Origin: a virus
Taxonomy: Duplodnaviria; Caudoviricetes
Virus record (IMG/VR): IMGVR_UViG_3300037631_002846
Location: 1 to 42,903 of that record
Direction: 5' to 3' (one strand)
Length of the DNA stretch: 42,903 nt
Position 1 is the stretch's first letter, and each line of letters opens with the position of its first letter. A model generated the notes under the pieces. The model saw only the letters and a program-made list of their open reading frames with translations, was not told the DNA's origin and searched no databases. Positions 8,301-42,903 of the stretch are shown here, piece by piece. Both the position numbers and the translations under genes were made by a program.

Positions 8301-11300
8301 CTAATTTTTGTTTTCAATGGTTACTTCAGGAAGCTTTTTCCCTGGGTTTTGTTTCTGCCAAAGTTTTTTAAGCCTTTCTTGCTCTTTATCGTATTTTTCT
8401 TTATCTTTTATTTTTTCGTCTATTTTATATTTTTTAATTAGATTTGTAATTAAACCCAACCTTTCCCATCTGCTTAAATCCTCTGTAATAGAAAGTCTTA
8501 CGTTATCAATTCTACTTACTGGAGCACTTGTAAAAAATTCTGTTAAATTAATAGTGACTCCAATTAAATCTTTTTCACCTAAATCGTAAATAGCTGATTT
8601 AGCTGTTCGTATTTTATCGCCAATAGGAGGAGAAAATTGTTCTAGCGCATTATAAATTATATTCTGCGGCTCTTGGTATGTTTTTTTAGAGTATTCTATA
8701 TCTAAAAAATTACTAAGCTCCCTCATAAATTCATTTTCAGGAAGTATTGTTACTTCAAGTTTTCCCTTATCAGGATTTAGTACATATGTTTTTTCATATT
8801 TACTTTTTTCCTGGTTCTCTTTTGCAAGATAATACTCATAAAGATCAAAAAGAATGTTTTTTACTTGAGAAAGAGCAAAAGGAAACATTCCAAACCCTTT
8901 TAAAGATGAATCTACGCCTCTGTTTATTAACTTTCCAAGCTTCTTCTTTTTCTTTATTTCCTCATCATCATCCCCAATAAGGCTTAAAAGAAACTTAATA
9001 GTTTGGAAAAGTATAGCTTGAACAAGTCCAAAGTAAGCGACATTAGATATATTGTCGGACAAGTTCCCCCTTTTGTTTTTTATGTTAGAAGCAGCTTCGT
9101 AAATTTTTCTGCTGTATTGCATAGAAACCCCGTTAAATGAAAGAATAAACCTAATAACAGCATTTTTTTGATCTGCACTAAGTCTGTTTTGACTAGAAGA
9201 TTGCTGACTGCTATTTGTTACCTCGTACGTTCTTTTTAAGGCTTCTTTTTTAGCCATTTCGTATGCGTCTTTTTTGCTATTTGTTTTTGAGTATTTAGAA
9301 AACAATTCATCTCTTTTAGCTGCGTAATAAGGGATTCCTCCAAGTCCTATCGCTAAAGAATCCATTGTGGTTGTTAAAATATATCCCTTTGCTAGAATTT
9401 GATCAACCAGAAGTCCTGATTTCTCCCAAGGTGTGAACTCTCCAAACTCAGAGTTTTTTAACTCTGTAATTTCTATACTAGATAAGTTTTTCTTAAACCT
9501 TCTTATGTAAGATGGGTCTGATAAAAACTCTTTTTTAGCGTCTATCATTCTTTGGTCTCCAGAAAGATAACTTATGTAATTATTAAAATAATCTTTTGAA
9601 CTTACATCTTCAAACGCATAGTTGATAAAAGAAATGGGTTGAGTAAGTGCTGAAACAGGATTTAAAAACATAATTTTGGCATTTGATCTATTTAGCCACT
9701 TGGTGAACATCCCATAATTTTTTTGATCGCTTCTTGTAGATTTGTTTTGTCCGTAAATTACGTCATTTACTGAATTTTGTAATTGACTTGCAAAACTTGA
9801 CCCGTATTGGTCTTTTATCAATCTAATATTTTTATCTGAAAGCATGGCTTTAAAGCTTCTCAATAAAGATATAGAGTGAACCATGTTTGTCATTCCAGAA
9901 ACATACTGTTCAAACATTAAGTCGCTATGCCTTATATTTAAAGAGCCTCCTTTCTTTCTTTCAAAAGAATTTGGAGCAAACGCAGAAATGTTAAATTCCT
10001 TGCTAAATATGCTTGCTTTTTGCATCATTTCAACATCTGTGCCTAACACAGAAATAGGAGAGTAAGACTCTTTTATAGGAATGTTGTAAATCCCTCCATA
10101 TATTGACTCTAATATTTTATAATATTTATCTGCAAAATTTTTACCCATTTGTTTTTCTAGCTCTTCTTTGGTTTTTGTATCTACATTAGCTATTCCTTCA
10201 TAACCATTATCCTCAAGCGCTTTGTTAACATCAGGTAGATAGCTTTTGTATATCTCAACTAGACCATCGGCATATTTTTTTACATCTTTGTTTTCGTTTA
10301 CAAAATCTACAATCTCTTTTATTTCGTTAAAACTATATCCAGAATTTAAAAATTTCTCTACACCAGTTTTCTGTTTAAAAGCATTGTATAAATACACAAC
10401 ATTACCAACAAGAAGATCTGGAGAGCTTATTCCTTGAGAGTTAGTTAATACAATACCTGTTTTTTGAGAGATTCTAGGAGCCTTAAATTTATCAATTGCT
10501 TTGCTTCCAAAAGCCCTTTTACTTAACGCTATTTTTTTGCTTTCTAAAATTTGAGAGTCGCTGTCAACTCCGTAAAACTTGTCGGACATTGGAGAGTTTA
10601 CGTTATTTTTTATCCAATCCGCCGTTTCTTGTGTTGAAGTAAACTTGCTAAACATAAGGGGAGTGTCAAAAAAGGTTCTAGCTAACATCCAATTTACAGT
10701 CTTGAAAAACGATGTTTTTTTAATATCAGGCTGAAGGGGATTATATATGGCATCCCCAGATATGTCACTATTTTCATCATACACTAAATCAAACTGTTTT
10801 TTTGAATCAAACAATACTCCATTAATTATAATAGTTTGTCCTGACTCTAAAGCTTTTATTGCTTCATCTACGTTTTTAATTTGCGTTTTAAGGTTTCTTT
10901 TTTCGGCTATTATATTTGCAATTTGAAGCTCTTGAAACTTTAACATTTCTTTAACTGCTTGTTTTAGTCTTTTTTCAGTTGAAACCCCTCCTTTAAATAT
11001 AGAATCAAGATTATTAAATAGAACCTTAAGGTCTTTTCGTTTCATTTTATTTACGGCACTCATAGGATATGCTGCATTAAAACGTTTCAATAAAGAAACA
11101 ACATCTTTAGGTAATTTTCTTTTTGCTGGAGCTAGGCTTCCTTTTTCTTTTTTAAACCTCCAATTTTTAGGATCTAATATATTTTTTATTTTCTTTTTAT
11201 AAAAACTATCTGTCTTAAGTTCAGATTTTCTTATTTCTTCCTCTGTATATTTAAGTTTCTTTAAAATATTTTTTATCTCTTCATAAGAAAGGTCTTTGCC

Positions 11301-14300
11301 TCCAGGCTTAAATTCAATATTTCTTATCTCTTTGTTTATCTCTTCATTTCTTTTTGAAGATTTTTTTCTGCTTCCACCTACGGCAGCTAACAATATAATA
11401 GAAGCCTCTATGGGGTTTGGAGACATAGGAGAGTCAGGCACAGGGATTCCTTTGTCAGAAACTTCTTGAAGCGTTATTTCGCCTTTATTATTTAAAGCAG
11501 ACTTTGGTATTATAAGAGCACCTCCAGAATAAGGGTGAAGCTCGTTGTATCCAGAAAATTGCTCTGTACTTAAAATTCCACCGATTGCCTTTGGTTTTGC
11601 AGTGTAAGAACCAGCGTCGTAAGAAGTGACTATTAATTTTTTAGGGTCTACACCAAACTCCTTAATAATGTTTTCGCCTTCAAGCTTTATTGACTTAAGA
11701 GGTCCATTAAAATCTCTTACTATTTCATTTCCTAAATTATCAGTAAATATAAACGAAACAGACCCTCCGCTAAACCTACCATATAGGTTATCGTTTTTAT
11801 CTACAGTCATTAAAGATCTAACACCTTCGCCACTTTTGGTTGTTATCATCTTAACATTTTTGATGTCAGGGTGATTTTTATATTTATCCCAATTAAGATC
11901 AGAAAATGTCCATTGAGACAACCTAGTTATTGCTATGTCTGAAGAATCCAAGTCTTTTGCTAACTTGTATTTTACGTTAACTTTATTGCCTGGTAGAATT
12001 GTAAATACTGGAACGTAATTATCTGGCTCTTTTGACTTTATATTTCTTTTAAATTTGTCAGAGTATTTTTTAAGGTCAGACTTGCTTGTTTTGCTTGACA
12101 AGTCAACTCCGAGTGCTCCATCAAGAATCATAAATTGAGAAACAGCTAAAGCGTCTTTTACCTTTATTACGGAATCTTTGTAGTTAGCTTTTACTGGGGT
12201 AGTATAATATGTGAAACCATTTTTATTTAAATACTGATTTCTAGTTAAAGCAAGGGAATCTGTTTTGTTTCTTTTATTTCTCCAGTGATTATCGGGGACT
12301 ACAGACACTAATTCCGTAAACGTCATTTCTTTCTCGTATACCGAATTATCTTCAGTTTTAGGAGCACTAGGCGCTAGAGTAAGGTCTTTAACATTTACTT
12401 CCTCATCAGTGTGATTAACAAGTCCTATCATTTTAAAATACCTCATAGCGGAGTCTGCCAAATTATCTGGAAGTATTTCTACAGAAGTGCGCACTAATTC
12501 TTCAACGCTAAAGCTATTGGTGGAAGAGTTAAAAGACATTCCCGAAACAATAGACCCAACTAAAGCGGCTATTAATATAGATTTCTTTATAAGCTTAACA
12601 ATTCTATCAATTATTTTTCTAAAGAAAGGCTTTTTGCTTTTAGTTGACTTGGAACCATTTAGATTTTCCTTTACTTCAGCTAATATTATTCCTTTAGCTT
12701 CTGATTTAGAAACACCAAACTCTTTCGCAACTTTATCTGTTTCTTGATCTGTCGTGTTGTCTTTTACGAATTTATCAATAGAACTAGATAGTTGTTTAAC
12801 GTTTTCAACTGCCTTTTCTTTAAGTCCATCAACATCTGAAGATTCAGAAATTTTGGTTTCTCCCGTCTTGGAGTCTGTTGTTAATGTTACTGGATATGGT
12901 TTAAATGAAATGAGTTTTACTAACTCTTCTGGAGTTGATTTTTTATCTTCAGAAGCAGCTTGAGTTTTATTTAAAAAACTAGTTTCAACGTCTCTTAATA
13001 CAATTCCCTTACCTATTGTAGATAGTTTATTTATAGCTTTAAGTTTGCTGTCAAATATCCCTTCTGAAATTAATAAATCAGTTAACGCATCATACGTTAA
13101 CTCTTCGTCATTTAAGTAATCGTAGTCAAATTCCTCAATTACATTTCCCTTGTAAACGTCAGTTAATATGTCAACTGCTGACGAATTAGGGTTAGACATT
13201 CTTATTGATGTAATAATGCTTCTTAACGATGTTCTACTAACTTCAGAGTTTAGTATCCTATTGTTTGTTGCAGTAGGAGTTGGTTTAATTTTAGGTTGAG
13301 TTTTTTCAGCTGGTGCAGTTTCTATAGGCTCAACTGCTGCAGTTACATTTTTTTCTTTTACTTCTGTTACTTCTTCTTTTAATTCTGGAATCCTATACAT
13401 ACTCTCTTTGTGAGAGAAATCCCTGTTTATACCTTTATTTTCTACAAATCCAAATTGTTTGTAAAATTTCTTAAGTCTTGTAACAGATGTAGCTCCAAAT
13501 TCTTTTGATGGAGTTAAAGTAAATTTCAAATTATTTGCATCGGCATATTCTACTAAGTTCTGCATAGCTCTTGTGCCTATTCCCTCACCTCTTGAACCCT
13601 CAGGAACAATAATTCTTCCTAGATTAAGTGTTTTATTTTTCTTATCTTCAAAAACATCAATAGTTATATTAGGGTATTTTTCAGATATCGCCTCTAAGGA
13701 TTGAGGTTCTACTTCCTTTTTTGTTGTTTCTGCGCTTTCTGTAGCAGCGTCATCAGGCTGTTGTATGCTTTTACTTGCTCTGGAGTCGGTCTTTTTCCCA
13801 TCTTCTTTTAGTTTTAAATAATTTTTAATTATAATAGCTTGTTCGTCTGACAAAACAGTGCCTGTAATATCGTCAATAGCCTTCATAGAAGCTTCGCTAC
13901 CATCAAGATTACTGTATATATCAAAAGCCTCACCAGGAGTAGCTCCTTTTATTTTTGCAGCTTTATTTAATGCTGCTAGTTTTGATTTAGACCTTGTATA
14001 CTTTTCAGGATTAGCTTGTCTATCTATTATATAATCAATTGCATCTTGAGGTGTTATTTCTGCACCATATGTTTCAGAAAGCTCTTGGACATTAATATCC
14101 AAAGGTATTGCTTTTTTAGATAAAAATTTAATAGAGAAAGATTTATCTCCCTTTCTTAAATTAGCATCTCCGTAAGCGTCAAAATCTTTAGGCGTTATTC
14201 TACCTAAGTTTTCGTGTAAAAAACTAAAAAGTCCACCCTCTCCATCTCTATCTAATTGAGTTCGCTCTGCCTTACGTTCCGCCTCTTGCGTCTCGTAAGC

Positions 14301-17300
14301 TCTGTTTATCTCCTCGTCCTTTAACTCTTCTATTAAATCATTATCAACAAACCCTTCTTCCATAGCCTTGTTGTACTCTTCAATGTCGTAAGGAGCTTCT
14401 TCCGCAGGTGCAGTTTCTAACTTTTCCGATACTTCTTCAACGGGTGTAGTCTTTAATAAAGGAGATATTTTATCATTATACTTGTCGTATATCTCTTGAA
14501 ACTTAGTCTTACCCTCTTCAGTTGTTAGCTTTTCCTTGTCAACCTTGCCATCTGTCAAAGCATTCTCTGCACCAGGAATTTGTTCAAGCATTTCAGCTTG
14601 CTCTTCTGCTCTTAATTTTACAACCTCTGCTGGCACTTCGGATACCTCTTCCGTAGGAGCTTTGTTTATTTCATCAAATTTTTCGTTAAAATAGTTTACA
14701 AGAGATTCGTCATTATTTATAACAACTTCAATATTATTATCTTTAATAAAAAGCTCAGGCTGCTCTATTGTTAAATTAATTAAATCGTCCCTATTTATTA
14801 TTTTAGTTTCTTGATTTCCAATTTTTATTTCAACATAAGGTTGGTTGTATAAAGATGGATTTTCTATAAACAAACTTAAATTAGCCTCAGCGTTAGATTG
14901 TTCTTTTTTTGCTGCTTCATATAGGCCAGCTTGACCCTTAAGTTTTTCAGATTTTTCTTTAGCATTATTTACATCTTGAGTAAGCTTGCTAAACAATGCT
15001 TTTTGAGTGTTAGATAAGCTAGGGTACTTGCTCCAGTTTTCTTCAATTGATTTGTAAGACTCAACTTCTCTAATTAAAGAGTTGAACTTTTTTGGCGAAA
15101 TTTTACCTGAAAATCCAAAAGAAGAAATCCAAGCTTTTGTAAACCCTTCTCCATGATTAGACATAGAGCTTGATATGTGTTGAGAAAACAAATTATCTTT
15201 ATTAGCAACACTAGATAGTCTTAATTGATTCGTTAAATCATTTACAACATTTTCTTTTTGTGCAGAAGAATTAAATTCTGTTATAGCCCTAGTAACGCTA
15301 CCCATTAACCCAGCTCCAGGTATTACTTCAAGAGCAATTTCTTTGACAAATTCAGGGGTTACTTTTTCTCTCCAACCTTTAGACGTTATTTCTTCTCCTT
15401 TAATTGCTTTTTCTATTATAGTCTGTTCTTGAGCGCTCTGAGGGACTTCTTGAAGGGTTTCAGTAAAAGCTTCAGAAACTCCAGCAGCTCCAATACGAAG
15501 GTATTTATTTGGAATAAATTTTAATGCTGAATTAACGAAAGGTATGGCTTCAAAAGAATATAGATAAAAATTTTCTAACTGAGCATCAAGCATAGCTTCA
15601 CCAGCTTTGTTAGATTTTTCAAAACTACCCGTTCTCGCTAAAACATCTTTTTTAATAGACATAGTCATGTCTAAAGTTTCAGTTCCCCACCCAGCAATAG
15701 CTATTGCAGCAAAACGAGGTAACGTAGCCATGCCTTTAGTTTCCATAGCTACAATTCCTCCTGAAATTATACTTGGCAAGGCAGACCCAGCAAGCCTTCC
15801 TGCAGCTTTACTTGATTTAGAAAGATCTAATAACTCACTCCAATCTTTTATTTTATCTGGAGCAACATTAAAGGTTTGATTCATTTTATCTCCAAGAATG
15901 ATAAGGTTTTTATCATTACTAGCTAATCCGTATCCAGAGATTACACGACCAGTCGTACCAAAAAATTCTTTTCCAAAATTTAAAATAGGCTCAACTAAAA
16001 AACCATTCATATATTCTGGAAGAATAGGGTTTTTCTCGTCAGCTTTTAACTTTTTATTTTCTTGTTCAAAAAACTTTTTATAAGAATCTGAGTATATTGC
16101 ATTTAACTTAGCAATATCTTTGGGGTCTGGATTGTAAGTTAAATTAAATTCTAAATATTTAGCGTTCATTTCATCTGCAATATTTTTTTGCAGAGAATCT
16201 TTTTTTACATTAATAGAGTTTATTAAAAGCTCGTTACTAGAAATGTACTTTTCAAATAGTATAGAATTAATTTTTGTAAGGCGTTGATTTGCTTTCTCAT
16301 TAGATATAGATCTATTTGATAATTGTTGCTCTATTTTTTGTCTCTCTAGTTTTAAAAGATTTTTATAGTTGGAATATAAATTATCATTCTTAGATTCATA
16401 CTCGTTAGTAATTTCAAAGTCTATTTTTTTAGCCTCATTTAAATAAGAAAAATAAGCTGCATCGTTCTTTTTAAAAGCATCAAAACTTTCTTCCCCTATC
16501 TTTTTACTCAAAGCTTTTACTTCAGGATTATTTTTTGTGTCTTTTTGTACAAACTCAGAAGACCTATAGCTTTCCGCTTTATTATTTAATTTTTCATATA
16601 TGAGATTGTTTATTTGGAAAAAAGCTTGATCTTTCTTTTCCCCAAACACAAGGTCAATACCAGTTCCAGAAAAAATAGAGCCTTCTTTATCAATAGATTT
16701 AGGTAAAAGTTTTTTAGTTAATTTTGAAGAAAATTCATCTATTGCATTTAAATCTGGTCTTAAAACTCCACTTTGGTTCTTTTTAACGTAGTCTGCTAAA
16801 TTAATAGGTTTTATTTCCTTTTCTATTATTTTATTAAGATTTTTTTCTGCAAAATCATATAGTTGTGTCACTTCATATTTACCTTGGCTTTCTTCCATGT
16901 CTTGAAACAAAGGCAATGATAAAGCAAACATTTCTGTAGCTTTTTTAGGATTTGTTTCAAAAACATTATTTGATAAAACTAACGCATTTTTAAGGATATT
17001 AAGATTTGTTGAGTTTAGTTCTTTTTTTAATTCATCTGGATCGTCTAATGTTGCTACACCTTCTTCTTCTGTAAAGCTAAGCAAGTCTTGAAGTTCTTCT
17101 TTTCTTCCTATTAATTTTGCTATATTTTGATCTAAACTGTCAATGTTTGTATCTTTACTTAATTTAAAAAGTCTTTCTTGTTCTGGAAAAGCATCCCCTA
17201 ACATTTGTTGTTTTAAATAGTTTTCTGGGGTGGTAGTATTAAAAGCTCCAAATAGTGAGCTAGCTCTAGCGTCGTCAAGATTATTTATCCTTTTAGATAT

Positions 17301-17711
17301 TTCATCAAAATCATCATCAAGATTAATATTGCTTAAATCTTCTTCAGAAGGCATGCTTACTTCGGGAAGATATTTATTTTGTTTTTTTATTTGATTTTTA
17401 AAACTAAATTTATCTTCTTTTTTTTCTTGTTTTGATTGCACTAAAGGTCCAACCCCAGATGTTGAAACTTCTTCCGTTGCTGTGACCACATCTTCCTCCA
17501 CAACAACATCCTCCTTTCCCAAGTCTACACTTTCTTCTACTTTTATCGGATCTTTGTAGCTTTTTCCTGAGTTTAATGCTTTTAAGAACTCATCATCTTC
17601 TTCTTTTGTAAATTCTTGTCTTCTACGCCACTCTAAAACTACGCCTTCAATAACTCTTCTTGGCTCTCCAGCCGCAATCATTTTTTTAACAATCTGATCT
17701 AACTCTTCCAT
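8301..17711 (-). CDS. Giant (3136 aa) multidomain internal virion/ejection (cargo) protein
   Basis: Follows the tail and ejection genes. Contains Gly/Ala hydrophobic helices (~aa 570-820), a GNAT domain (~13385-13680), a hydrophobic-bounded domain (~11370-12590) and a long helical C-terminal region. No RNA polymerase catalytic motif in context. Confidence 0.8.
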   Translation of the reverse strand: MEELDQIVKKMIAAGEPRRVIEGVVLEWRRRQEFTKEEDDEFLKALNSGKSYKDPIKVEESVDLGKEDVVVEEDVVTATEEVSTSGVGPLVQSKQEKKEDKFSFKNQIKKQNKYLPEVSMPSEEDLSNINLDDDFDEISKRINNLDDARASSLFGAFNTTTPENYLKQQMLGDAFPEQERLFKLSKDTNIDSLDQNIAKLIGRKEELQDLLSFTEEEGVATLDDPDELKKELNSTNLNILKNALVLSNNVFETNPKKATEMFALSLPLFQDMEESQGKYEVTQLYDFAEKNLNKIIEKEIKPINLADYVKKNQSGVLRPDLNAIDEFSSKLTKKLLPKSIDKEGSIFSGTGIDLVFGEKKDQAFFQINNLIYEKLNNKAESYRSSEFVQKDTKNNPEVKALSKKIGEESFDAFKKNDAAYFSYLNEAKKIDFEITNEYESKNDNLYSNYKNLLKLERQKIEQQLSNRSISNEKANQRLTKINSILFEKYISSNELLINSINVKKDSLQKNIADEMNAKYLEFNLTYNPDPKDIAKLNAIYSDSYKKFFEQENKKLKADEKNPILPEYMNGFLVEPILNFGKEFFGTTGRVISGYGLASNDKNLIILGDKMNQTFNVAPDKIKDWSELLDLSKSSKAAGRLAGSALPSIISGGIVAMETKGMATLPRFAAIAIAGWGTETLDMTMSIKKDVLARTGSFEKSNKAGEAMLDAQLENFYLYSFEAIPFVNSALKFIPNKYLRIGAAGVSEAFTETLQEVPQSAQEQTIIEKAIKGEEITSKGWREKVTPEFVKEIALEVIPGAGLMGSVTRAITEFNSSAQKENVVNDLTNQLRLSSVANKDNLFSQHISSSMSNHGEGFTKAWISSFGFSGKISPKKFNSLIREVESYKSIEENWSKYPSLSNTQKALFSKLTQDVNNAKEKSEKLKGQAGLYEAAKKEQSNAEANLSLFIENPSLYNQPYVEIKIGNQETKIINRDDLINLTIEQPELFIKDNNIEVVINNDESLVNYFNEKFDEINKAPTEEVSEVPAEVVKLRAEEQAEMLEQIPGAENALTDGKVDKEKLTTEEGKTKFQEIYDKYNDKISPLLKTTPVEEVSEKLETAPAEEAPYDIEEYNKAMEEGFVDNDLIEELKDEEINRAYETQEAERKAERTQLDRDGEGGLFSFLHENLGRITPKDFDAYGDANLRKGDKSFSIKFLSKKAIPLDINVQELSETYGAEITPQDAIDYIIDRQANPEKYTRSKSKLAALNKAAKIKGATPGEAFDIYSNLDGSEASMKAIDDITGTVLSDEQAIIIKNYLKLKEDGKKTDSRASKSIQQPDDAATESAETTKKEVEPQSLEAISEKYPNITIDVFEDKKNKTLNLGRIIVPEGSRGEGIGTRAMQNLVEYADANNLKFTLTPSKEFGATSVTRLKKFYKQFGFVENKGINRDFSHKESMYRIPELKEEVTEVKEKNVTAAVEPIETAPAEKTQPKIKPTPTATNNRILNSEVSRTSLRSIITSIRMSNPNSSAVDILTDVYKGNVIEEFDYDYLNDEELTYDALTDLLISEGIFDSKLKAINKLSTIGKGIVLRDVETSFLNKTQAASEDKKSTPEELVKLISFKPYPVTLTTDSKTGETKISESSDVDGLKEKAVENVKQLSSSIDKFVKDNTTDQETDKVAKEFGVSKSEAKGIILAEVKENLNGSKSTKSKKPFFRKIIDRIVKLIKKSILIAALVGSIVSGMSFNSSTNSFSVEELVRTSVEILPDNLADSAMRYFKMIGLVNHTDEEVNVKDLTLAPSAPKTEDNSVYEKEMTFTELVSVVPDNHWRNKRNKTDSLALTRNQYLNKNGFTYYTTPVKANYKDSVIKVKDALAVSQFMILDGALGVDLSSKTSKSDLKKYSDKFKRNIKSKEPDNYVPVFTILPGNKVNVKYKLAKDLDSSDIAITRLSQWTFSDLNWDKYKNHPDIKNVKMITTKSGEGVRSLMTVDKNDNLYGRFSGGSVSFIFTDNLGNEIVRDFNGPLKSIKLEGENIIKEFGVDPKKLIVTSYDAGSYTAKPKAIGGILSTEQFSGYNELHPYSGGALIIPKSALNNKGEITLQEVSDKGIPVPDSPMSPNPIEASIILLAAVGGSRKKSSKRNEEINKEIRNIEFKPGGKDLSYEEIKNILKKLKYTEEEIRKSELKTDSFYKKKIKNILDPKNWRFKKEKGSLAPAKRKLPKDVVSLLKRFNAAYPMSAVNKMKRKDLKVLFNNLDSIFKGGVSTEKRLKQAVKEMLKFQELQIANIIAEKRNLKTQIKNVDEAIKALESGQTIIINGVLFDSKKQFDLVYDENSDISGDAIYNPLQPDIKKTSFFKTVNWMLARTFFDTPLMFSKFTSTQETADWIKNNVNSPMSDKFYGVDSDSQILESKKIALSKRAFGSKAIDKFKAPRISQKTGIVLTNSQGISSPDLLVGNVVYLYNAFKQKTGVEKFLNSGYSFNEIKEIVDFVNENKDVKKYADGLVEIYKSYLPDVNKALEDNGYEGIANVDTKTKEELEKQMGKNFADKYYKILESIYGGIYNIPIKESYSPISVLGTDVEMMQKASIFSKEFNISAFAPNSFERKKGGSLNIRHSDLMFEQYVSGMTNMVHSISLLRSFKAMLSDKNIRLIKDQYGSSFASQLQNSVNDVIYGQNKSTRSDQKNYGMFTKWLNRSNAKIMFLNPVSALTQPISFINYAFEDVSSKDYFNNYISYLSGDQRMIDAKKEFLSDPSYIRRFKKNLSSIEITELKNSEFGEFTPWEKSGLLVDQILAKGYILTTTMDSLAIGLGGIPYYAAKRDELFSKYSKTNSKKDAYEMAKKEALKRTYEVTNSSQQSSSQNRLSADQKNAVIRFILSFNGVSMQYSRKIYEAASNIKNKRGNLSDNISNVAYFGLVQAILFQTIKFLLSLIGDDDEEIKKKKKLGKLINRGVDSSLKGFGMFPFALSQVKNILFDLYEYYLAKENQEKSKYEKTYVLNPDKGKLEVTILPENEFMRELSNFLDIEYSKKTYQEPQNIIYNALEQFSPPIGDKIRTAKSAIYDLGEKDLIGVTINLTEFFTSAPVSRIDNVRLSITEDLSRWERLGLITNLIKKYKIDEKIKDKEKYDKEQERLKKLWQKQNPGKKLPEVTIENKN
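13709..13801 (-). CDS. Candidate overprinted 30-aa peptide nested in the +1 frame of the giant gene
   Basis: MGKRPTPEQVKAYNSLMTLLQKAQKQQKRK-TAG; AU-rich upstream (TTTAAAACTAAAAGAAG-ATG, A at -3); ends ~30 nt before the GNAT domain. Confidence 0.4.
   Translation of the reverse strand: MGKRPTPEQVKAYNSLMTLLQKAQKQQKRK
17457..17520 (-). other. Candidate -1 programmed ribosomal frameshift signal (slippery heptamer plus H-type pseudoknot)
   Basis: G GGA AAG in frame at Gly65-Lys66 (17520-17514); 6-nt spacer; stem 1 GUUGUUGUG/CACAGCAAC; stem 2 AGAUGU/ACAUCU. Confidence 0.65.
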
Positions 17712-17729
17712 ATTTATATATATAAAATA

Positions 17730-19598
17730 TTATTTTTTATTGGCATATATGCTGTCTAAATAATTTGAAATTCCTTTATCTATTAATGAAGTATTTAATT
17801 GAGCATCAATTCCTGGAAATAAATTTACTGGGTTGTATCCAATTAAATAATTAATTAAAAACTTTTCAATTTTTTCTGGTTTGTTTATATCAAATGTATT
17901 GGTTTCTATTTCTTTTGTGTTATAAGTTGCTGTGCCAGCAAGATTATAAGTCATTAATGGTGTGCCATCTGTATTAGTCTGTAGGTTCCCACTTTGGTCC
18001 GTGGCTTGTACAAGACTAACCCCACCTTCTTTTACAATTCTAGGGGTCTTCATTACAACTTTATCTCCTTCAATTTTAAAAACTAAGTTTGGAATTTTAG
18101 ACTTTAAAATATTTTTAAAATCATTAGCTAATTTTTCTTTTTCTTTTTTATCCTCGTTAATAGTGTTAATGCTAAATGGCGTTGATTTTGGTACTGAGTA
18201 ATCATAAAGAGTTTCCATTGCATTTTTTATTGACTGATAAGATCCATATGCTTTAAATTGCCACTCTTTAAACTCAGGAACTTCTACTTTATCTTCTTTA
18301 AATAGTTTGTAATTTGCTTTCCTATTTGCACTCTCTGATGTGTTAATTTCTTCTTTACCTGGCTTGGTTGCCTTCATTTCACTCATTTTTATCCAAAGGT
18401 AAGCTCTTTTAAGGTTGTTCCAGTCCTCTTGTTCATAACCCTTTGTTGCAGACCTATCTTTAGTATGGTCTCTAACATACCTACCTCCTTTAAGTCCAGG
18501 ACTACCAAACTTAACGGTTTCCATCACTAAGTTTCCGTCATTGTCTACAACAAACTCTCCGCCTTCTTCTCTTGGTACCTCCATCTCAAGCATACCTTCA
18601 CTATCTTTTCTCATTCCAGCTATATTAGCTGCTCTAGAGTTAAGGAAAGATACACCACTTCCGTCATTTAATGACCCTGCAATTAAATTTACCTCTGCAT
18701 TTGTAAATGACTGAATACTTCTTTTTATGTCGTTATACCTTGGGACTTGCTTGTCGTAAACATCAATACCGTTTGAAGAAACTCTTTGGGATGTTTCAAA
18801 TAAATTTCTAGAAAGCAAGTTATCATCCCCCATAATCTTAAGGTCTTGAAGCTGTTTGTTCATGCCACTAAGTCCAGGAACCGTAGCCATTTGGTTACCG
18901 TAATTGTTTTCATCTCCATTTGCATTGTCTAACGCATTTTTGTTTTCAGTGTAGGAGGTCTTGTGCTTTGTTTTAATGCTTCCATCTGCGTTCAGGTATT
19001 GACTACTACCAGTTTCTTTATAAAGCTTCTTATACATCTCCTCTACCGCTGGTCCCTCAGTTACTCTAAACCACTCTCCACCTCCATCTTCTGAGTACTC
19101 CCACTCCCATGAAACTTTTCCTTGCGTGTCCATATTGGGGTTTCCAATGTCTTGTGCAATAGCAAAGAAAGGATCTGTTTGAGACATGTCTATCATTCCC
19201 TCTGCGTTACCAACACCTTTATTCTGCATTATTTTGTTATACTCTTCATCTACGTAAAGAAGTGCAGAGAACGTGTCTCCTATTCTAGCTATTTCTGATT
19301 GAGTGTTTGAGACAAATTTTTCATCCCACTCGCTACCTTCATAGGGGCCATCCGCCGTACCAAGCCTAATCTTTGCATTGGCTAGTTGCTCAACCATTTT
19401 ATTTGTTTGCTGTATAAGACTTTCTCTATTCACGCCTTTTTCAAGCCCCGTTGTGATTATGCCAGCTTGCAACTGTGCGGCAGAATTTAAAGTAGATTGT
19501 CTGTACTGCCAATTTGCTTTTTCCTTTGCATCGGATAATCTCTGCTCCTCTCTTGCAGCATTAATTTGACTTTGAACTATGTCTGTAAGTTTGCCCAT
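17730..19598 (-). CDS. Putative internal virion (ejection) protein, 622 aa
   Basis: Middle gene of a small/medium/giant trio after the tail genes, as in podovirus ejectosome operons; coiled-coil N-terminus. Confidence 0.6.
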   Translation of the reverse strand: MGKLTDIVQSQINAAREEQRLSDAKEKANWQYRQSTLNSAAQLQAGIITTGLEKGVNRESLIQQTNKMVEQLANAKIRLGTADGPYEGSEWDEKFVSNTQSEIARIGDTFSALLYVDEEYNKIMQNKGVGNAEGMIDMSQTDPFFAIAQDIGNPNMDTQGKVSWEWEYSEDGGGEWFRVTEGPAVEEMYKKLYKETGSSQYLNADGSIKTKHKTSYTENKNALDNANGDENNYGNQMATVPGLSGMNKQLQDLKIMGDDNLLSRNLFETSQRVSSNGIDVYDKQVPRYNDIKRSIQSFTNAEVNLIAGSLNDGSGVSFLNSRAANIAGMRKDSEGMLEMEVPREEGGEFVVDNDGNLVMETVKFGSPGLKGGRYVRDHTKDRSATKGYEQEDWNNLKRAYLWIKMSEMKATKPGKEEINTSESANRKANYKLFKEDKVEVPEFKEWQFKAYGSYQSIKNAMETLYDYSVPKSTPFSINTINEDKKEKEKLANDFKNILKSKIPNLVFKIEGDKVVMKTPRIVKEGGVSLVQATDQSGNLQTNTDGTPLMTYNLAGTATYNTKEIETNTFDINKPEKIEKFLINYLIGYNPVNLFPGIDAQLNTSLIDKGISNYLDSIYANKK

Positions 19599-19607
19599 AA
19601 TATTTAT

Positions 19608-20243
19608 CTACTTTTTACTAAATGCTTTAAAATCAAGATCACCAGTACTTGCAGAGGTTAAGCCCCCTGATATTGCTCCAAATATATCAGACGTTGCCTG
19701 ATTACCTGCAGCCTCTCCCATTGCCTTTCTACCCTGTGCTGCGTCATAATCAACTTGTGCTCTGTCAAGCTGTATAAGATCTCTCTTGTCTTGCTCTCTG
19801 TAAGAAAATTCTTCTGCTGCTGCTCTTTGTGCTTGAAGGTTTTGCTCGCCTTGTGCCGCTAATTTTTGATTAGCTGACTCTTGTCCCTCTATACTAGCTG
19901 CAACTCCCTTTTTACTTTGTAAGGCCGCCTGTGCTAATGCAGTGGCACCACCTGCTCCACCACCCGTTGCACGTATTGTGTCAAGCGTGTTTGCAAGTGC
20001 AATATCTGTTTGCTCCATTTGCATTTCTGCCGCTTGAGTTGCCACCCCTAAATTATTAAATGGATTGCTTAAATTTGCTGCAAGATCAGGTATTTCAACT
20101 CTAGATTCCTCTAATGCATTAATTCTTGCTTCCGCTCTTCTACGGTCTTTTTCTCCAGACCTTTTTTCTTTTCTTGCTTTAGACCCTTTAATTAAGGCAC
20201 CCGTTAATCCAACGGCAGTAGCACCTACTAGTAAAAATGACAT
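19608..20243 (-). CDS. Putative ejection/DNA pilot protein (Ala/Gln/Gly-rich)
   Basis: Hydrophobic N-terminus (SFLLVGATAVGLTGALI), GGGAGGATALAQAA segment, coiled coil and Gly-rich amphipathic C-terminus. Confidence 0.65.
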   Translation of the reverse strand: MSFLLVGATAVGLTGALIKGSKARKEKRSGEKDRRRAEARINALEESRVEIPDLAANLSNPFNNLGVATQAAEMQMEQTDIALANTLDTIRATGGGAGGATALAQAALQSKKGVAASIEGQESANQKLAAQGEQNLQAQRAAAEEFSYREQDKRDLIQLDRAQVDYDAAQGRKAMGEAAGNQATSDIFGAISGGLTSASTGDLDFKAFSKK

Positions 20244-36760: not shown

Positions 36761-37045
36761 CTAATTAAATTTAGCTCTACCCTCAGCAAATCCTTTAAAC
36801 TCGCTTTTCTTTTTATTTTCGTCTTTAGGCTTATCGTCTAAAAGTCCTTCTTCTTCCTCAATCCTATTTAATATTTCAAAAGCATCAAATATTGCTAGTT
36901 TTTTAGTTGCCGCAGCATTCTTTAATTTATCTGCTGTTAAATCATCGTCTGAATCAACAATAGCCTCCTTAGCCACTTTTATTAACTCTTCAACCGCTCT
37001 TTGCCCAGCTTGGATTATATTCTTCTTCGTTTCCTTTACGTTCAT
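36761..37045 (-). CDS. Small helical protein, possible terminase small subunit
   Basis: Immediately upstream of terL; all-helical with a GFAEGR tail. Start placed at ATG 37045. Confidence 0.5.
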   Translation of the reverse strand: MNVKETKKNIIQAGQRAVEELIKVAKEAIVDSDDDLTADKLKNAAATKKLAIFDAFEILNRIEEEEGLLDDKPKDENKKKSEFKGFAEGRAKFN

Positions 37046-37586
37046 GTTTCGCAACAATGTTAATTAATTTCATACAATATAATAGTTCGCCATCAATGAT
37101 AAACTCAAATTCTGACGTTGGTCTAAAAGACACTAAGTCCTCTTCATTTATTCCAAGGTCAACCAAACCTTTGTTACCAAACTTTAATATTCCTATAAGT
37201 GGCTTTTCTGATTCTAAAGAAAATATATCGTAATTTACTAAAGGTTTTACAAAACAATAATCAAGATGAGTCTTATTTGCTCCATACATATATATTTGAT
37301 CAGGTGAACAAGCATACATATCTTCTTTAATAAAACTTCTACTGTTTTTTTCGTTGCCCCTAATGTCATAAAATCTTCTGAATACGTTGTGGTGTACTAT
37401 AACCTTATCTCCAACTTTTATTTTAGTATCTATAGCTAATGGTAAAGCCACCACCTCGGCAACTTTACTTACACTTTTAAATTCCTCAATTCTTGTATTG
37501 ACTATGAGGTCAACCTCATCAACCTTAACAGTATTATTATATCTACCCTCTATGGGTTTTATAATAAAATCGTAAATACTTTTCAT
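36990..37586 (-). CDS. Tandem (two-domain) GroES-like protein
   Basis: Repeat 1: DFIIKP...AEVVALP...IKVGDKVIVH. Repeat 2: DYCFVKP...GILKFG...GINEEDLVSF...EFIIDGELLYCMK..NIVA. Confidence 0.6.
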   Translation of the reverse strand: MKSIYDFIIKPIEGRYNNTVKVDEVDLIVNTRIEEFKSVSKVAEVVALPLAIDTKIKVGDKVIVHHNVFRRFYDIRGNEKNSRSFIKEDMYACSPDQIYMYGANKTHLDYCFVKPLVNYDIFSLESEKPLIGILKFGNKGLVDLGINEEDLVSFRPTSEFEFIIDGELLYCMKLINIVAKHERKGNEEEYNPSWAKSG

Positions 37587-41493: not shown

Positions 41494-41750
41494 AAAACAA
41501 CAACAACGTCAAACTCTTTAATAACCTTATAAATAATCTTATCAATCTCCATATCAAAACCTGCGTGTCTATCGTAGTAAATAGTGTCACCATCTTGTAC
41601 TCCTTCAACTAATGTTCCTATGGTTTTTACTTTTGCCTCTCTGTATCTTATATCTTCTCTATGACTCTCTCCTAAGATTAAGCCACCCTTTGTAGACACC
41701 TCTTTTTCTTTTACAGGCTCTATCAACATATACTTTCCTACTGCCTTCAT
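41490..41750 (-). CDS. groES: Co-chaperonin GroES (Cpn10)
   Basis: Mobile loop STKGGLIL, AKVKTIG, VQDGDTIYY, YKVIKEFDVV; adjacent to groEL. Confidence 0.9.
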   Translation of the reverse strand: MKAVGKYMLIEPVKEKEVSTKGGLILGESHREDIRYREAKVKTIGTLVEGVQDGDTIYYDRHAGFDMEIDKIIYKVIKEFDVVVVL

Positions 41751-42903
41751 TATGCTCTTAAGTTATTAATTACACAATCAGTTGCTAGTATCGTATTAGC
41801 TACAGATGCCGCATTCTTTAATGCACTCTTCGTAACAAGTAGTGGGTCAACTATTCCAGCCTCAATCATATTAACAATCTTCTCTGTTATCACGTTGATT
41901 CCTAAACCCTCTTCTGAGTTCACAAGCCCCGCCTTAACACCAGCGTTGTCCATTATTGTTTGGAACGGCGCTTTTATTGCCTTTAGCAATATCTCCTCCC
42001 CTACGTTCTTAGGTTTAATCTTGTTATTAGCGTTGAGTAGAGCAATTCCTCCACCTGGAAGTATACCCTCTTTAATCGCTGCCTTAGTAGCACAGATTGA
42101 ATCCTCAACCCTGTCAGCCTTTTCTTTTAACTCAACCTCCGAGTTAGCCCCTACTTTAACTACACCAACCTTGCCTCCAAGTCTTGAAAGTCTTTTCTCA
42201 AGTAAGTGTTTCTTGCCGTTAATCTTTGTGGTCTTTAATTCTTTTTTAAGCTGCTTGATTAAGTCCTTAACGTCATCACTCATTCCATCTACTTGGATGA
42301 TTGTTTCGTCAGATGTTGTTATTGACTTTAAGCAAGTCCCTAAGTGACTTACATCAATCAGGTCCATATCATCTCCAAGGTCCTCGTTTATTACCGTAGC
42401 TCCTGTTAGAACTGCGAAGTCTTGTAACGTTTGCTTCTTGTTTATACCAAAGTCAGGTGCATCAATAATGTTTGCCTTAATGTTCCCCTTTGATACGTTC
42501 ATTGAGATTGCTGTAACTAGTTGTTCATCAGCGTCCCCAATAATTAATAATTCTTTTTTGTTTTTAATAACGTGTTCAAGAATGCTTTGAACCTTTCTTA
42601 CGTTGGGTATCTTGCTCTCTACGATTAGTACCAGTGGGTTATTTAACTCACAAGCTCCTTTCTCCTTGTTATTAATAAAGTGATGATTTTTTAAGCCCTT
42701 GTCTAGTGACGCACCATCAACAATCTCTACAGATGTTTCCTCGTCATTAGATATTTCCATACTTACCACACCATTCTCTCCAACGTCTTCAAAAGCTTTA
42801 GCTATCATTGACCCTAAATCTGAGTCGTTGTTAGATGATATTGTTGCAACCTGCTTTAGCATATCACCACTCACGGCTACTGCTTTGCTTTCTAAGTACG
42901 CTA
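41750..42903 (-). CDS. groEL: Chaperonin GroEL (Cpn60), 5' end outside the window
   Basis: QVATISSN, APDFG, RLSRLGG.VGVVKVGANSEVELKEKADRVED, EGILPGGG, AGIVDP. The frame is open to the window edge. Confidence 0.95.
   Translation of the reverse strand, partial: AYLESKAVAVSGDMLKQVATISSNNDSDLGSMIAKAFEDVGENGVVSMEISNDEETSVEIVDGASLDKGLKNHHFINNKEKGACELNNPLVLIVESKIPNVRKVQSILEHVIKNKKELLIIGDADEQLVTAISMNVSKGNIKANIIDAPDFGINKKQTLQDFAVLTGATVINEDLGDDMDLIDVSHLGTCLKSITTSDETIIQVDGMSDDVKDLIKQLKKELKTTKINGKKHLLEKRLSRLGGKVGVVKVGANSEVELKEKADRVEDSICATKAAIKEGILPGGGIALLNANNKIKPKNVGEEILLKAIKAPFQTIMDNAGVKAGLVNSEEGLGINVITEKIVNMIEAGIVDPLLVTKSALKNAASVANTILATDCVINNLRA

Follow-up and report, generated by a model that had tools for sequence, protein, structure and literature searches.

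What would a -1 ribosomal frameshift signal do near the start of a giant phage gene, where the new frame closes after a few dozen codons? This question is raised by a virus record of 42,903 nucleotides (nt) (Duplodnaviria; Caudoviricetes; IMGVR_UViG_3300037631_002846, positions 1 to 42,903), the whole of which is referred to here as the window. Its minus strand carries a gene of 3136 aa (8301..17711) that, judged from gene position, likely encodes an ejection or cargo protein, and an initial annotation made from the sequence alone proposed that a truncating -1 frameshift with an H-type pseudoknot takes place at its codon 65, either to limit the copy number of the giant protein or to make a short partner sharing its N-terminal domain. 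The analysis presented here indicates that the window very likely carries a programmed truncating frameshift, as conservation of the signal in the window's own subtype and in a large related family suggests. The reading as a whole, in which a pseudoknot-driven -1 shift would give a functional protein of 100 residues, is considered probable. Concerning the two purposes proposed, the short partner is favored over pure copy-number control, the -1 frame of the family being constrained as protein.

The giant gene, its signal elements and the two genes upstream of it lie on the minus strand. The slippery heptamer G GGA AAG (17514..17520) is in frame at codons 65-66 of the 3136-aa open reading frame (ORF) and is followed by the spacer GAGGAT (17508..17513), which with 6 nt has the modal spacer length of the family. 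Stimulatory structures are normally located 5-9 nt downstream of the slippery site. In the window, a stem 1 is predicted between GTTGTTGTG (17498..17507, including the closing G17498) and CACAGCAAC (17476..17485, including the closing U17485); the 9 bp first claimed are present, and the G17498.U17485 pair lengthens the stem to 10 bp. The predicted stem 2 joins AGAUGU in the stem 1 loop (17488..17493) to ACAUCU (17457..17462). Codons 1-66 (17514..17711), common to both products, encode a small, probably helical N-terminal domain (N-domain) with relatives in other giants. The -1 frame tail (17410..17514) comprises 34 aa and ends at TAA 17412-17410, so that the predicted -1 product has 66+34 = 100 aa. 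This tail includes the aromatic motif FNIWGWTFS (17440..17466), which is in register with the motif YGxxxG[RK]WFFG of the family but has diverged in sequence. Slippery site, pseudoknot and aromatic -1 motif make up a cassette of 81 nt (17440..17520). The positions assigned to heptamer, spacer, both stems and -1 stop in the initial annotation were all correct when the sequence was read again. An alternative pairing of the spacer (GGAUGU/ACAUCU) was set aside, as it overlaps stem 1 and would presumably sit in the ribosome entry channel.

Taken alone, the window's site is suggestive, not decisive. The A-rich giant gene contains 48 in-frame XXXYYYZ heptamers, and of these the G GGA AAG site is followed by the structure with the lowest folding energy (-18.5 kcal/mol; runner-up -12.0). 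The 41-nt hairpin (z=-3.27) was matched by 2 of 200 shuffles, and the pseudoknot score of 37 was reached by none of 500 dinucleotide shuffles. Across the giant gene, 3 of 1037 sliding windows, slip site included, also attained this score, so that the score alone is not unique. When codons were randomised with the protein fixed, the heptamer arose in 132 of 3000 sequences and a score of at least 37 in 53 of 3000. Rfam gave no match near the gathering score in 17000-18000. A second group of high pseudoknot scores (36-39) occurs in the giant gene at 16685-16520 of the same strand.

The comparison with other phages is more informative. In the locus L278, a close relative that shares 89% protein identity across the first 1033 aa, the site is retained and 2 of the 81 nt differ. 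Beyond this relative, a block of 26 aa (GKxDVVVEEDVVTATEExSxSGVGPL) was found in giants which have other N-domains and whose identity to that of the window is just 26-28%, over a C-terminal stretch. Four cassette phages were obtained in this manner, L280-L282 by a 0-frame pattern and L310 by a -1 tail pattern alone, and in them the 81-nt cassette is 91-94% identical amid flanks of 32-57% identity (ungapped). The identity begins exactly at the first G of the heptamer and runs 17 nt beyond the pseudoknot, across the -1 codons for WGWTFS. The heptamer, whose conservation in homologues the initial annotation had put forward as a check, is invariant in the six subtype loci, its first G being retained in TTG (Leu) or CCG (Pro). 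All 16 stem pairs are formed in the five aligned subtype loci, with two one-sided changes; L310 adds a third, and all three changes at paired positions preserve pairing. The cassette is not a product of chance, being nearly identical amid unrelated flanks and altered at paired positions only in ways that preserve pairing. Judged from these sequences, the cassette behaves as an exchanged module. A reading of it as a decaying relic was dropped, as the same block occurs nearly unchanged in unrelated giants. With blastn, no cultured phage matched a pseudoknot-class cassette.

Related signals, with YGFxxG[RK]WFFG in the -1 frame, were first revealed by 33 loci fetched through a neighboring 211-aa gene. 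A pattern restricted to the 0 frame, E(D/N)GSL, gave 120 loci, 105 after subtraction of 14 duplicates and one edge case. The -1 frame of 33 of these 105 reads Y/H-G, at positions left unfixed by the pattern, and a slip site was present upstream in 33/33 of them versus 3/72 of the others. The -1 peptide pattern YGxxxG[RK]WFFG matched about 310 IMG/VR stretches, of which 120 were analyzed and reduced to 98 representatives by removing one non-N-terminal hit, five duplicates and near-identical rows. The motif lies at the start of a long ORF of another frame in 119 of the 120 loci. A strict heptamer was present in the open -1 stretch of 77/98 representatives (control, 78/2010), other slip types (G GAA AAG, G GAU UUU or NNA AAG) in 19/98 and no listed type in 2/98. 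As the family is defined here, the motif is located about 48-75 nt past the heptamer and the signal within the first ~130 codons of the giant; an early -1 stop, as anticipated in the initial annotation, follows 13-20 codons after the motif start in 94/98. In Genome Taxonomy Database (GTDB) genomes 15 stretches matched, about half of them with the same anatomy and the others being chance or internal matches.

The tail of this family is constrained as a protein. Its -1 residues are held through synonymous variation, Tyr being written as TAC or TAT (0-frame Thr or Met) and Gly by all four codons, while the 0-frame residues vary. Positions outside the pattern are conserved as well, with a hydrophobic residue at +11 in 96/98 and R/K at +13 in 71. 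The tails are rich in W/F/Y/I/G and carry a net charge of at least +2 in 97/98 representatives. Such conservation at the protein level makes it likely that the short product has a function, and that the shift is not just a throttle on the giant gene. Over stem 1, the -1 linker is frequently Cys-rich in loci of the heptamer class (class A; CC..CxC), and in the window it reads GGCCCGGRC. The Ala/Val codons of the stem probably bring this about as a side effect, metal binding or disulfides being conceivable alternatives.

Two slip devices can be distinguished among the representatives, a heptamer-type site in 58/98 and a run of exactly 9 or 10 As (A9/A10) in 38/98. In the heptamer class a pseudoknot score of at least 30 was obtained for 36/58 sites, versus 101/2320 shuffles and 22/400 downstream windows. 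Stem 1 begins 6 nt after the heptamer in 37/56, and helices of at least 7 bp start at 5-7 nt in 43/63 sequences, with 0-1 at each of nine other offsets. The A-run class has little pseudoknot signal (6/38 vs 42/760). Runs of nine As are known sites of transcriptional slippage in bacteria (PMC5009743), and for this reason slippage of the RNA polymerase is the likely device at A9/A10; an unstimulated ribosomal slip may be the alternative. A-run sites seem mostly paired with a duplicated type of N-domain.

The cultured relatives examined all belong to the A-run class. In phi38:1, Calle_1, Gundel_1 and elemoA an A10 is in frame and the -1 tails are aromatic but diverged. Phages phi13:2, phi18:3, phi19:3, phi46:3 and Panino were deposited with an A9 that leaves the giant out of frame (L300:24119-24394, phi13:2; L302:24056-24376, phi19:3; L304:5310-5633, phi18:3; L305:6119-6439, phi46:3; L034:18700-18900, Panino). 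In this split arrangement the N-domain has a small ORF to itself, and the giant and the WFFG tail lie in the -1 and the +1 frame, respectively, which may reflect either slippage-dependent expression or a homopolymer error. The giant part of phi18:3 is annotated as detected by mass spectrometry (MS) and its N-domain ORF is without such annotation. The same three-frame arrangement was seen at an A11 in a contig of a metagenome-assembled genome (MAG) (L290:1330-1540), where neither the giant nor the WFFG tail can be reached from the start frame.

A number of results weigh against this reading. In nested folding, windows of 64, 96 and 121 nt were unremarkable (z -0.13 to -0.49 vs shuffles). In the stems, pairs are kept through one-sided changes with no two-sided compensatory change in the subtype, and the stem 2 variants seen in a subset of 16 family members (AGAUGU/ACAUCU, GGAUGC/GCAUCC, GGGUGU/ACACCC) were located by a search that favors pairing. 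Between the window and L278, conservation of the cassette barely exceeds that elsewhere in the gene (p=0.046 for bases; p=0.21 at synonymous sites), and recent transfer could account for part of the identity within the subtype. The motif-based samples were selected on the motif itself, and acidic Ser/Gly-rich 0 frames partly yield aromatic, basic -1 frames by default. The cassette occurs in just 5 of 25 neighbor-selected gene starts and is absent from 20, many of which represent one clade; it is thus not a universal feature. Finally, the family profile misses the window's tail, which is not among the best 45 of 43,613 segments, though L006 and L013 were found strongly.

The unremarkable longer folds and the 48 in-frame heptamers of the A-rich gene would suit a locus devoid of programmed frameshifting, at which what is conserved is a peptide of the 0 frame or an RNA element that serves otherwise (in pausing or mRNA stability), the heptamer being incidental. 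This is very unlikely: the combination of slip sites, fixed spacer, pseudoknot and constraint on the -1 frame is far more frequent than in controls, and the first G of the heptamer is kept after the codons of nine different amino acids, compared with a G before GGA AAN in just 6 of 64 background cases.

The divergence of the window's tail bears on a different possibility, namely that the frameshift is real but is purely a throttle, by which less of the giant is made, the short product being waste in the window's subtype. The tail retains the W, the last F and the preceding F-x-I and has lost the Tyr, three Gly and one Phe, five of the eight fixed residues, and giant ejection proteins are low-copy, as with the N4 vRNAP at 4 +/- 1 per virion (PMC13434306). 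For a throttle, however, a tail of 34 codons is not needed. Subtype identity continues past the pseudoknot over WGWTFS, and the family tail is constrained as protein and kept with two different slip devices. A pure throttle is considered unlikely. With W and F aligned, the window's motif starts 48 nt beyond the heptamer and is followed by a stop 20 codons later, as in the family; given its lost residues, the window is best filed as a diverged subtype, not as a strict member of the YGxxxG[RK]WFFG family.

The patchy presence of the cassette (5/25), its exchange among unrelated giants and the occurrence of one tail behind many unrelated N-domains would agree with an accessory conflict factor, which would be anchored in the host membrane and, by way of the N-domain that it has in common with them, catch giants arriving from related phages (superinfection exclusion or decoy). 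This variant of the preferred explanation has the same first steps. It appears unlikely, about as much so as the throttle: the cassette lies within a structural operon, and the A9/A10 runs, present in all cultured relatives examined, point to a more general role.

The preferred explanation, a truncating frameshift with a functional short product, can be outlined as follows. A ribosome translating the giant gene would pause at the predicted pseudoknot six bases past G GGA AAG; a fraction of the ribosomes would shift back by one base, translate 34 codons of the new frame and terminate, releasing the 100-residue protein. An in-frame X XXY YYZ heptamer, a predicted structure at 6 nt and conservation beyond the needs of the 0 frame are canonical marks of -1 frameshifting, all of them found here, and G_GGA_AAG is highly shift-prone in E. 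coli (PMC5009743). Slippage at this heptamer with stimulation by the predicted pseudoknot is very probable, its occurrence and its rate in the window being inferences. The short protein would combine the N-terminal domain of the giant with a basic, aromatic tail, and it probably has a function, if with somewhat less assurance than the slip itself. The shared N-domain would send both products to the same place, the cationic-aromatic tail would anchor the short one, most likely to a membrane, and this protein would then act as a companion of the giant in packaging or ejection, the lower output of giant being a side effect of slippage. A generic target such as the membrane fits better than a co-evolved phage partner because the tail moves between unrelated giants and tolerates divergence. 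These roles, with the N-domain as an address shared with the giant, the tail as membrane anchor and the short protein as packaging or ejection companion, are put forward only tentatively.

With regard to the phage itself, which is aquatic, the genes recognised include those for a terminase, a P22-like portal, structural proteins and GroEL/GroES, and a crAss muzzle domain is also encoded. Its relatives by capsid type and portal are Elemovirus, Pervagoviridae (phi38:1, Calle), Pachyviridae and Maribacter phage Panino, all of them phages of Bacteroidetes. GroEL and a GroES-like protein are encoded at 41750-42874 and 36990-37586, and phi38:1 encodes both too; these might be linked to folding of the giant or bind the aromatic tail. 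Upstream of the giant lie a 622-aa gene (17730..19598), by position likely a second ejection protein, and the 211-aa gene with a hydrophobic N-terminus (19608..20243), likely the first ejection protein and ~50% identical in 33 related loci. A three-gene plan of ejection proteins is known from T7 and N4 (PMC13434306), and the order of the 211-aa, 622-aa and giant genes fits this small-medium-giant plan (T7 gp14-16 / N4 gp52-50). Positional counterparts of the three genes in phi18:3 are annotated as MS-detected; since the sequence links to cultured phages are weak, we only infer the ejection protein label.

The giant contains a GNAT-like domain at about aa 1356-1424 (about 13440-13650), within its variable middle region; the giant of the relative P0002 is without this domain and has another insert at that place, as in polyvalent proteins. 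Direct searches of IMG/VR for relatives, made with the 622-aa protein and with N-terminal and internal parts of the giant, gave no matches. For 27 N-domain sequences no Pfam family above the cut-off and no informative PHROGs family were obtained, the N-domains had no named family in the ESM Atlas, and profile searches of the PDB yielded nothing significant. A predicted N-domain homodimer scored 0.01, which was counted neither for nor against. In loci L157-L276 the same -1 tail is preceded by a wide variety of small N-terminal domains that are unrelated to each other and often consist of tandem duplicates of ~30 aa. At L026:12859-13764, a 301-aa gene placed before a giant with its own N-domain has G GGA AAA and a GKWF remnant in a -1 frame broken by stops, possibly a cassette decayed after gene fission. 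A search with the -1-tail profile returned 21 called proteins of 58-112 aa, of which 20 carry the motif C-terminally behind an N-domain-like part in one frame. These single-frame proteins were rejected as support: 7 of the 10 looked up were singletons, similar entries (P0032-P0035, P0036, P0038) look like indel errors, and the single-frame products are probably assembly errors.

No description of the signal was found in the literature searched, in which subscription papers were poorly covered; the initial annotation likewise knew of none for podovirus ejection genes. The word frameshift is absent from the texts of PMC8776804, PMC13434306 and PMC8954989, and the PRFect paper does not mention Cellulophaga or Flavobacteria. 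The portability of the signal as a module, the diverged tail subtype and the replacement by A9/A10 elsewhere go beyond the view of the initial annotation. The predicted small protein is invisible to gene callers and widespread in aquatic Bacteroidetes phages, going by the ~310 stretches that match the strict motif alone. The range of phage frameshifting, with tail chaperones and capsid extensions as its cases, would thereby come to include truncation in genes of ejection type. The family also provides natural bacterial -1 pseudoknots by the dozen, and a handle is gained on how giant cargo proteins are addressed and packaged. Slippage at A-runs may explain the split giant-gene annotations of five cultured phage records; the cultured relatives phi38:1, Calle, Gundel and elemo represent the A-run class only. 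In its widest form the proposal is of a mobile recoding module of aquatic Bacteroidetes podophages, which would add to their giant ejection gene a second, hidden product made up of an N-terminal address domain and a membrane-active aromatic peptide, be operated by a pseudoknot ribosomal slip in some lineages and by A9/A10 RNA polymerase slippage in others, and amount to an unrecognised fourth ejection component (packaging companion, pilot peptide or exclusion factor). This is conceivable and slightly short of an even chance.

Among known systems, the slip site of the lambda G/GT pair is of the G_GGA_AAG type. As with gpG/gpGT, the two predicted products of the window share their N-terminal part and the -1 part would bind something else; a G_GGA_AAG-type site is also used by HCTV g-t (PMC5009743). 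However, the G/GT shift takes place near the 3' end and extends the protein in long-tailed phages, whereas that of the window is at codon 65 of 3136, truncating and in a phage of the short-tailed type. The initial annotation rightly spoke of a reversed logic, the -1 frame stopping after 34 codons. No tail assembly chaperone, major tail or tape measure family was detected in the 23 window proteins scanned, and the signal is not the tail assembly chaperone frameshift of lambda G/GT. Carboxysome csoS2 A/B is another truncating -1 shift (PMC5009743), likewise in a protein acting inside an icosahedral shell, but it comes late, adds just 3 residues of the -1 frame and is not viral.

The two-device pattern suggested by the two family classes has a counterpart in dnaX tau/gamma, where some species make the truncated product through a ribosomal -1 frameshift and others through slippage of transcription on an A-run (PMC5009743). 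In the family too, the two slip devices seem to yield one product. Unlike the predicted short protein, gamma ends within about a codon of the shift, makes up two-thirds of the protein and has no conserved transframe tail.

The short product of E. coli copA is essentially the N-terminal domain alone. The window differs from this case in that its gene is of phage virion type, that the new frame adds a tail of its own (conserved in the family), and that the giant and its N-domain have no Pfam match to a P-type ATPase or a metal-binding N-domain. The likeness is in the arrangement: the copA frameshift gives the 70-aa CopA(Z) from a gene of 834 aa (PMC5009743), as the window would give 100 aa from 3136, and in both, by prediction for the window, an early -1 shift in a long gene leads to a short product which shares the N-terminal domain of the long one and is thought to be its partner.

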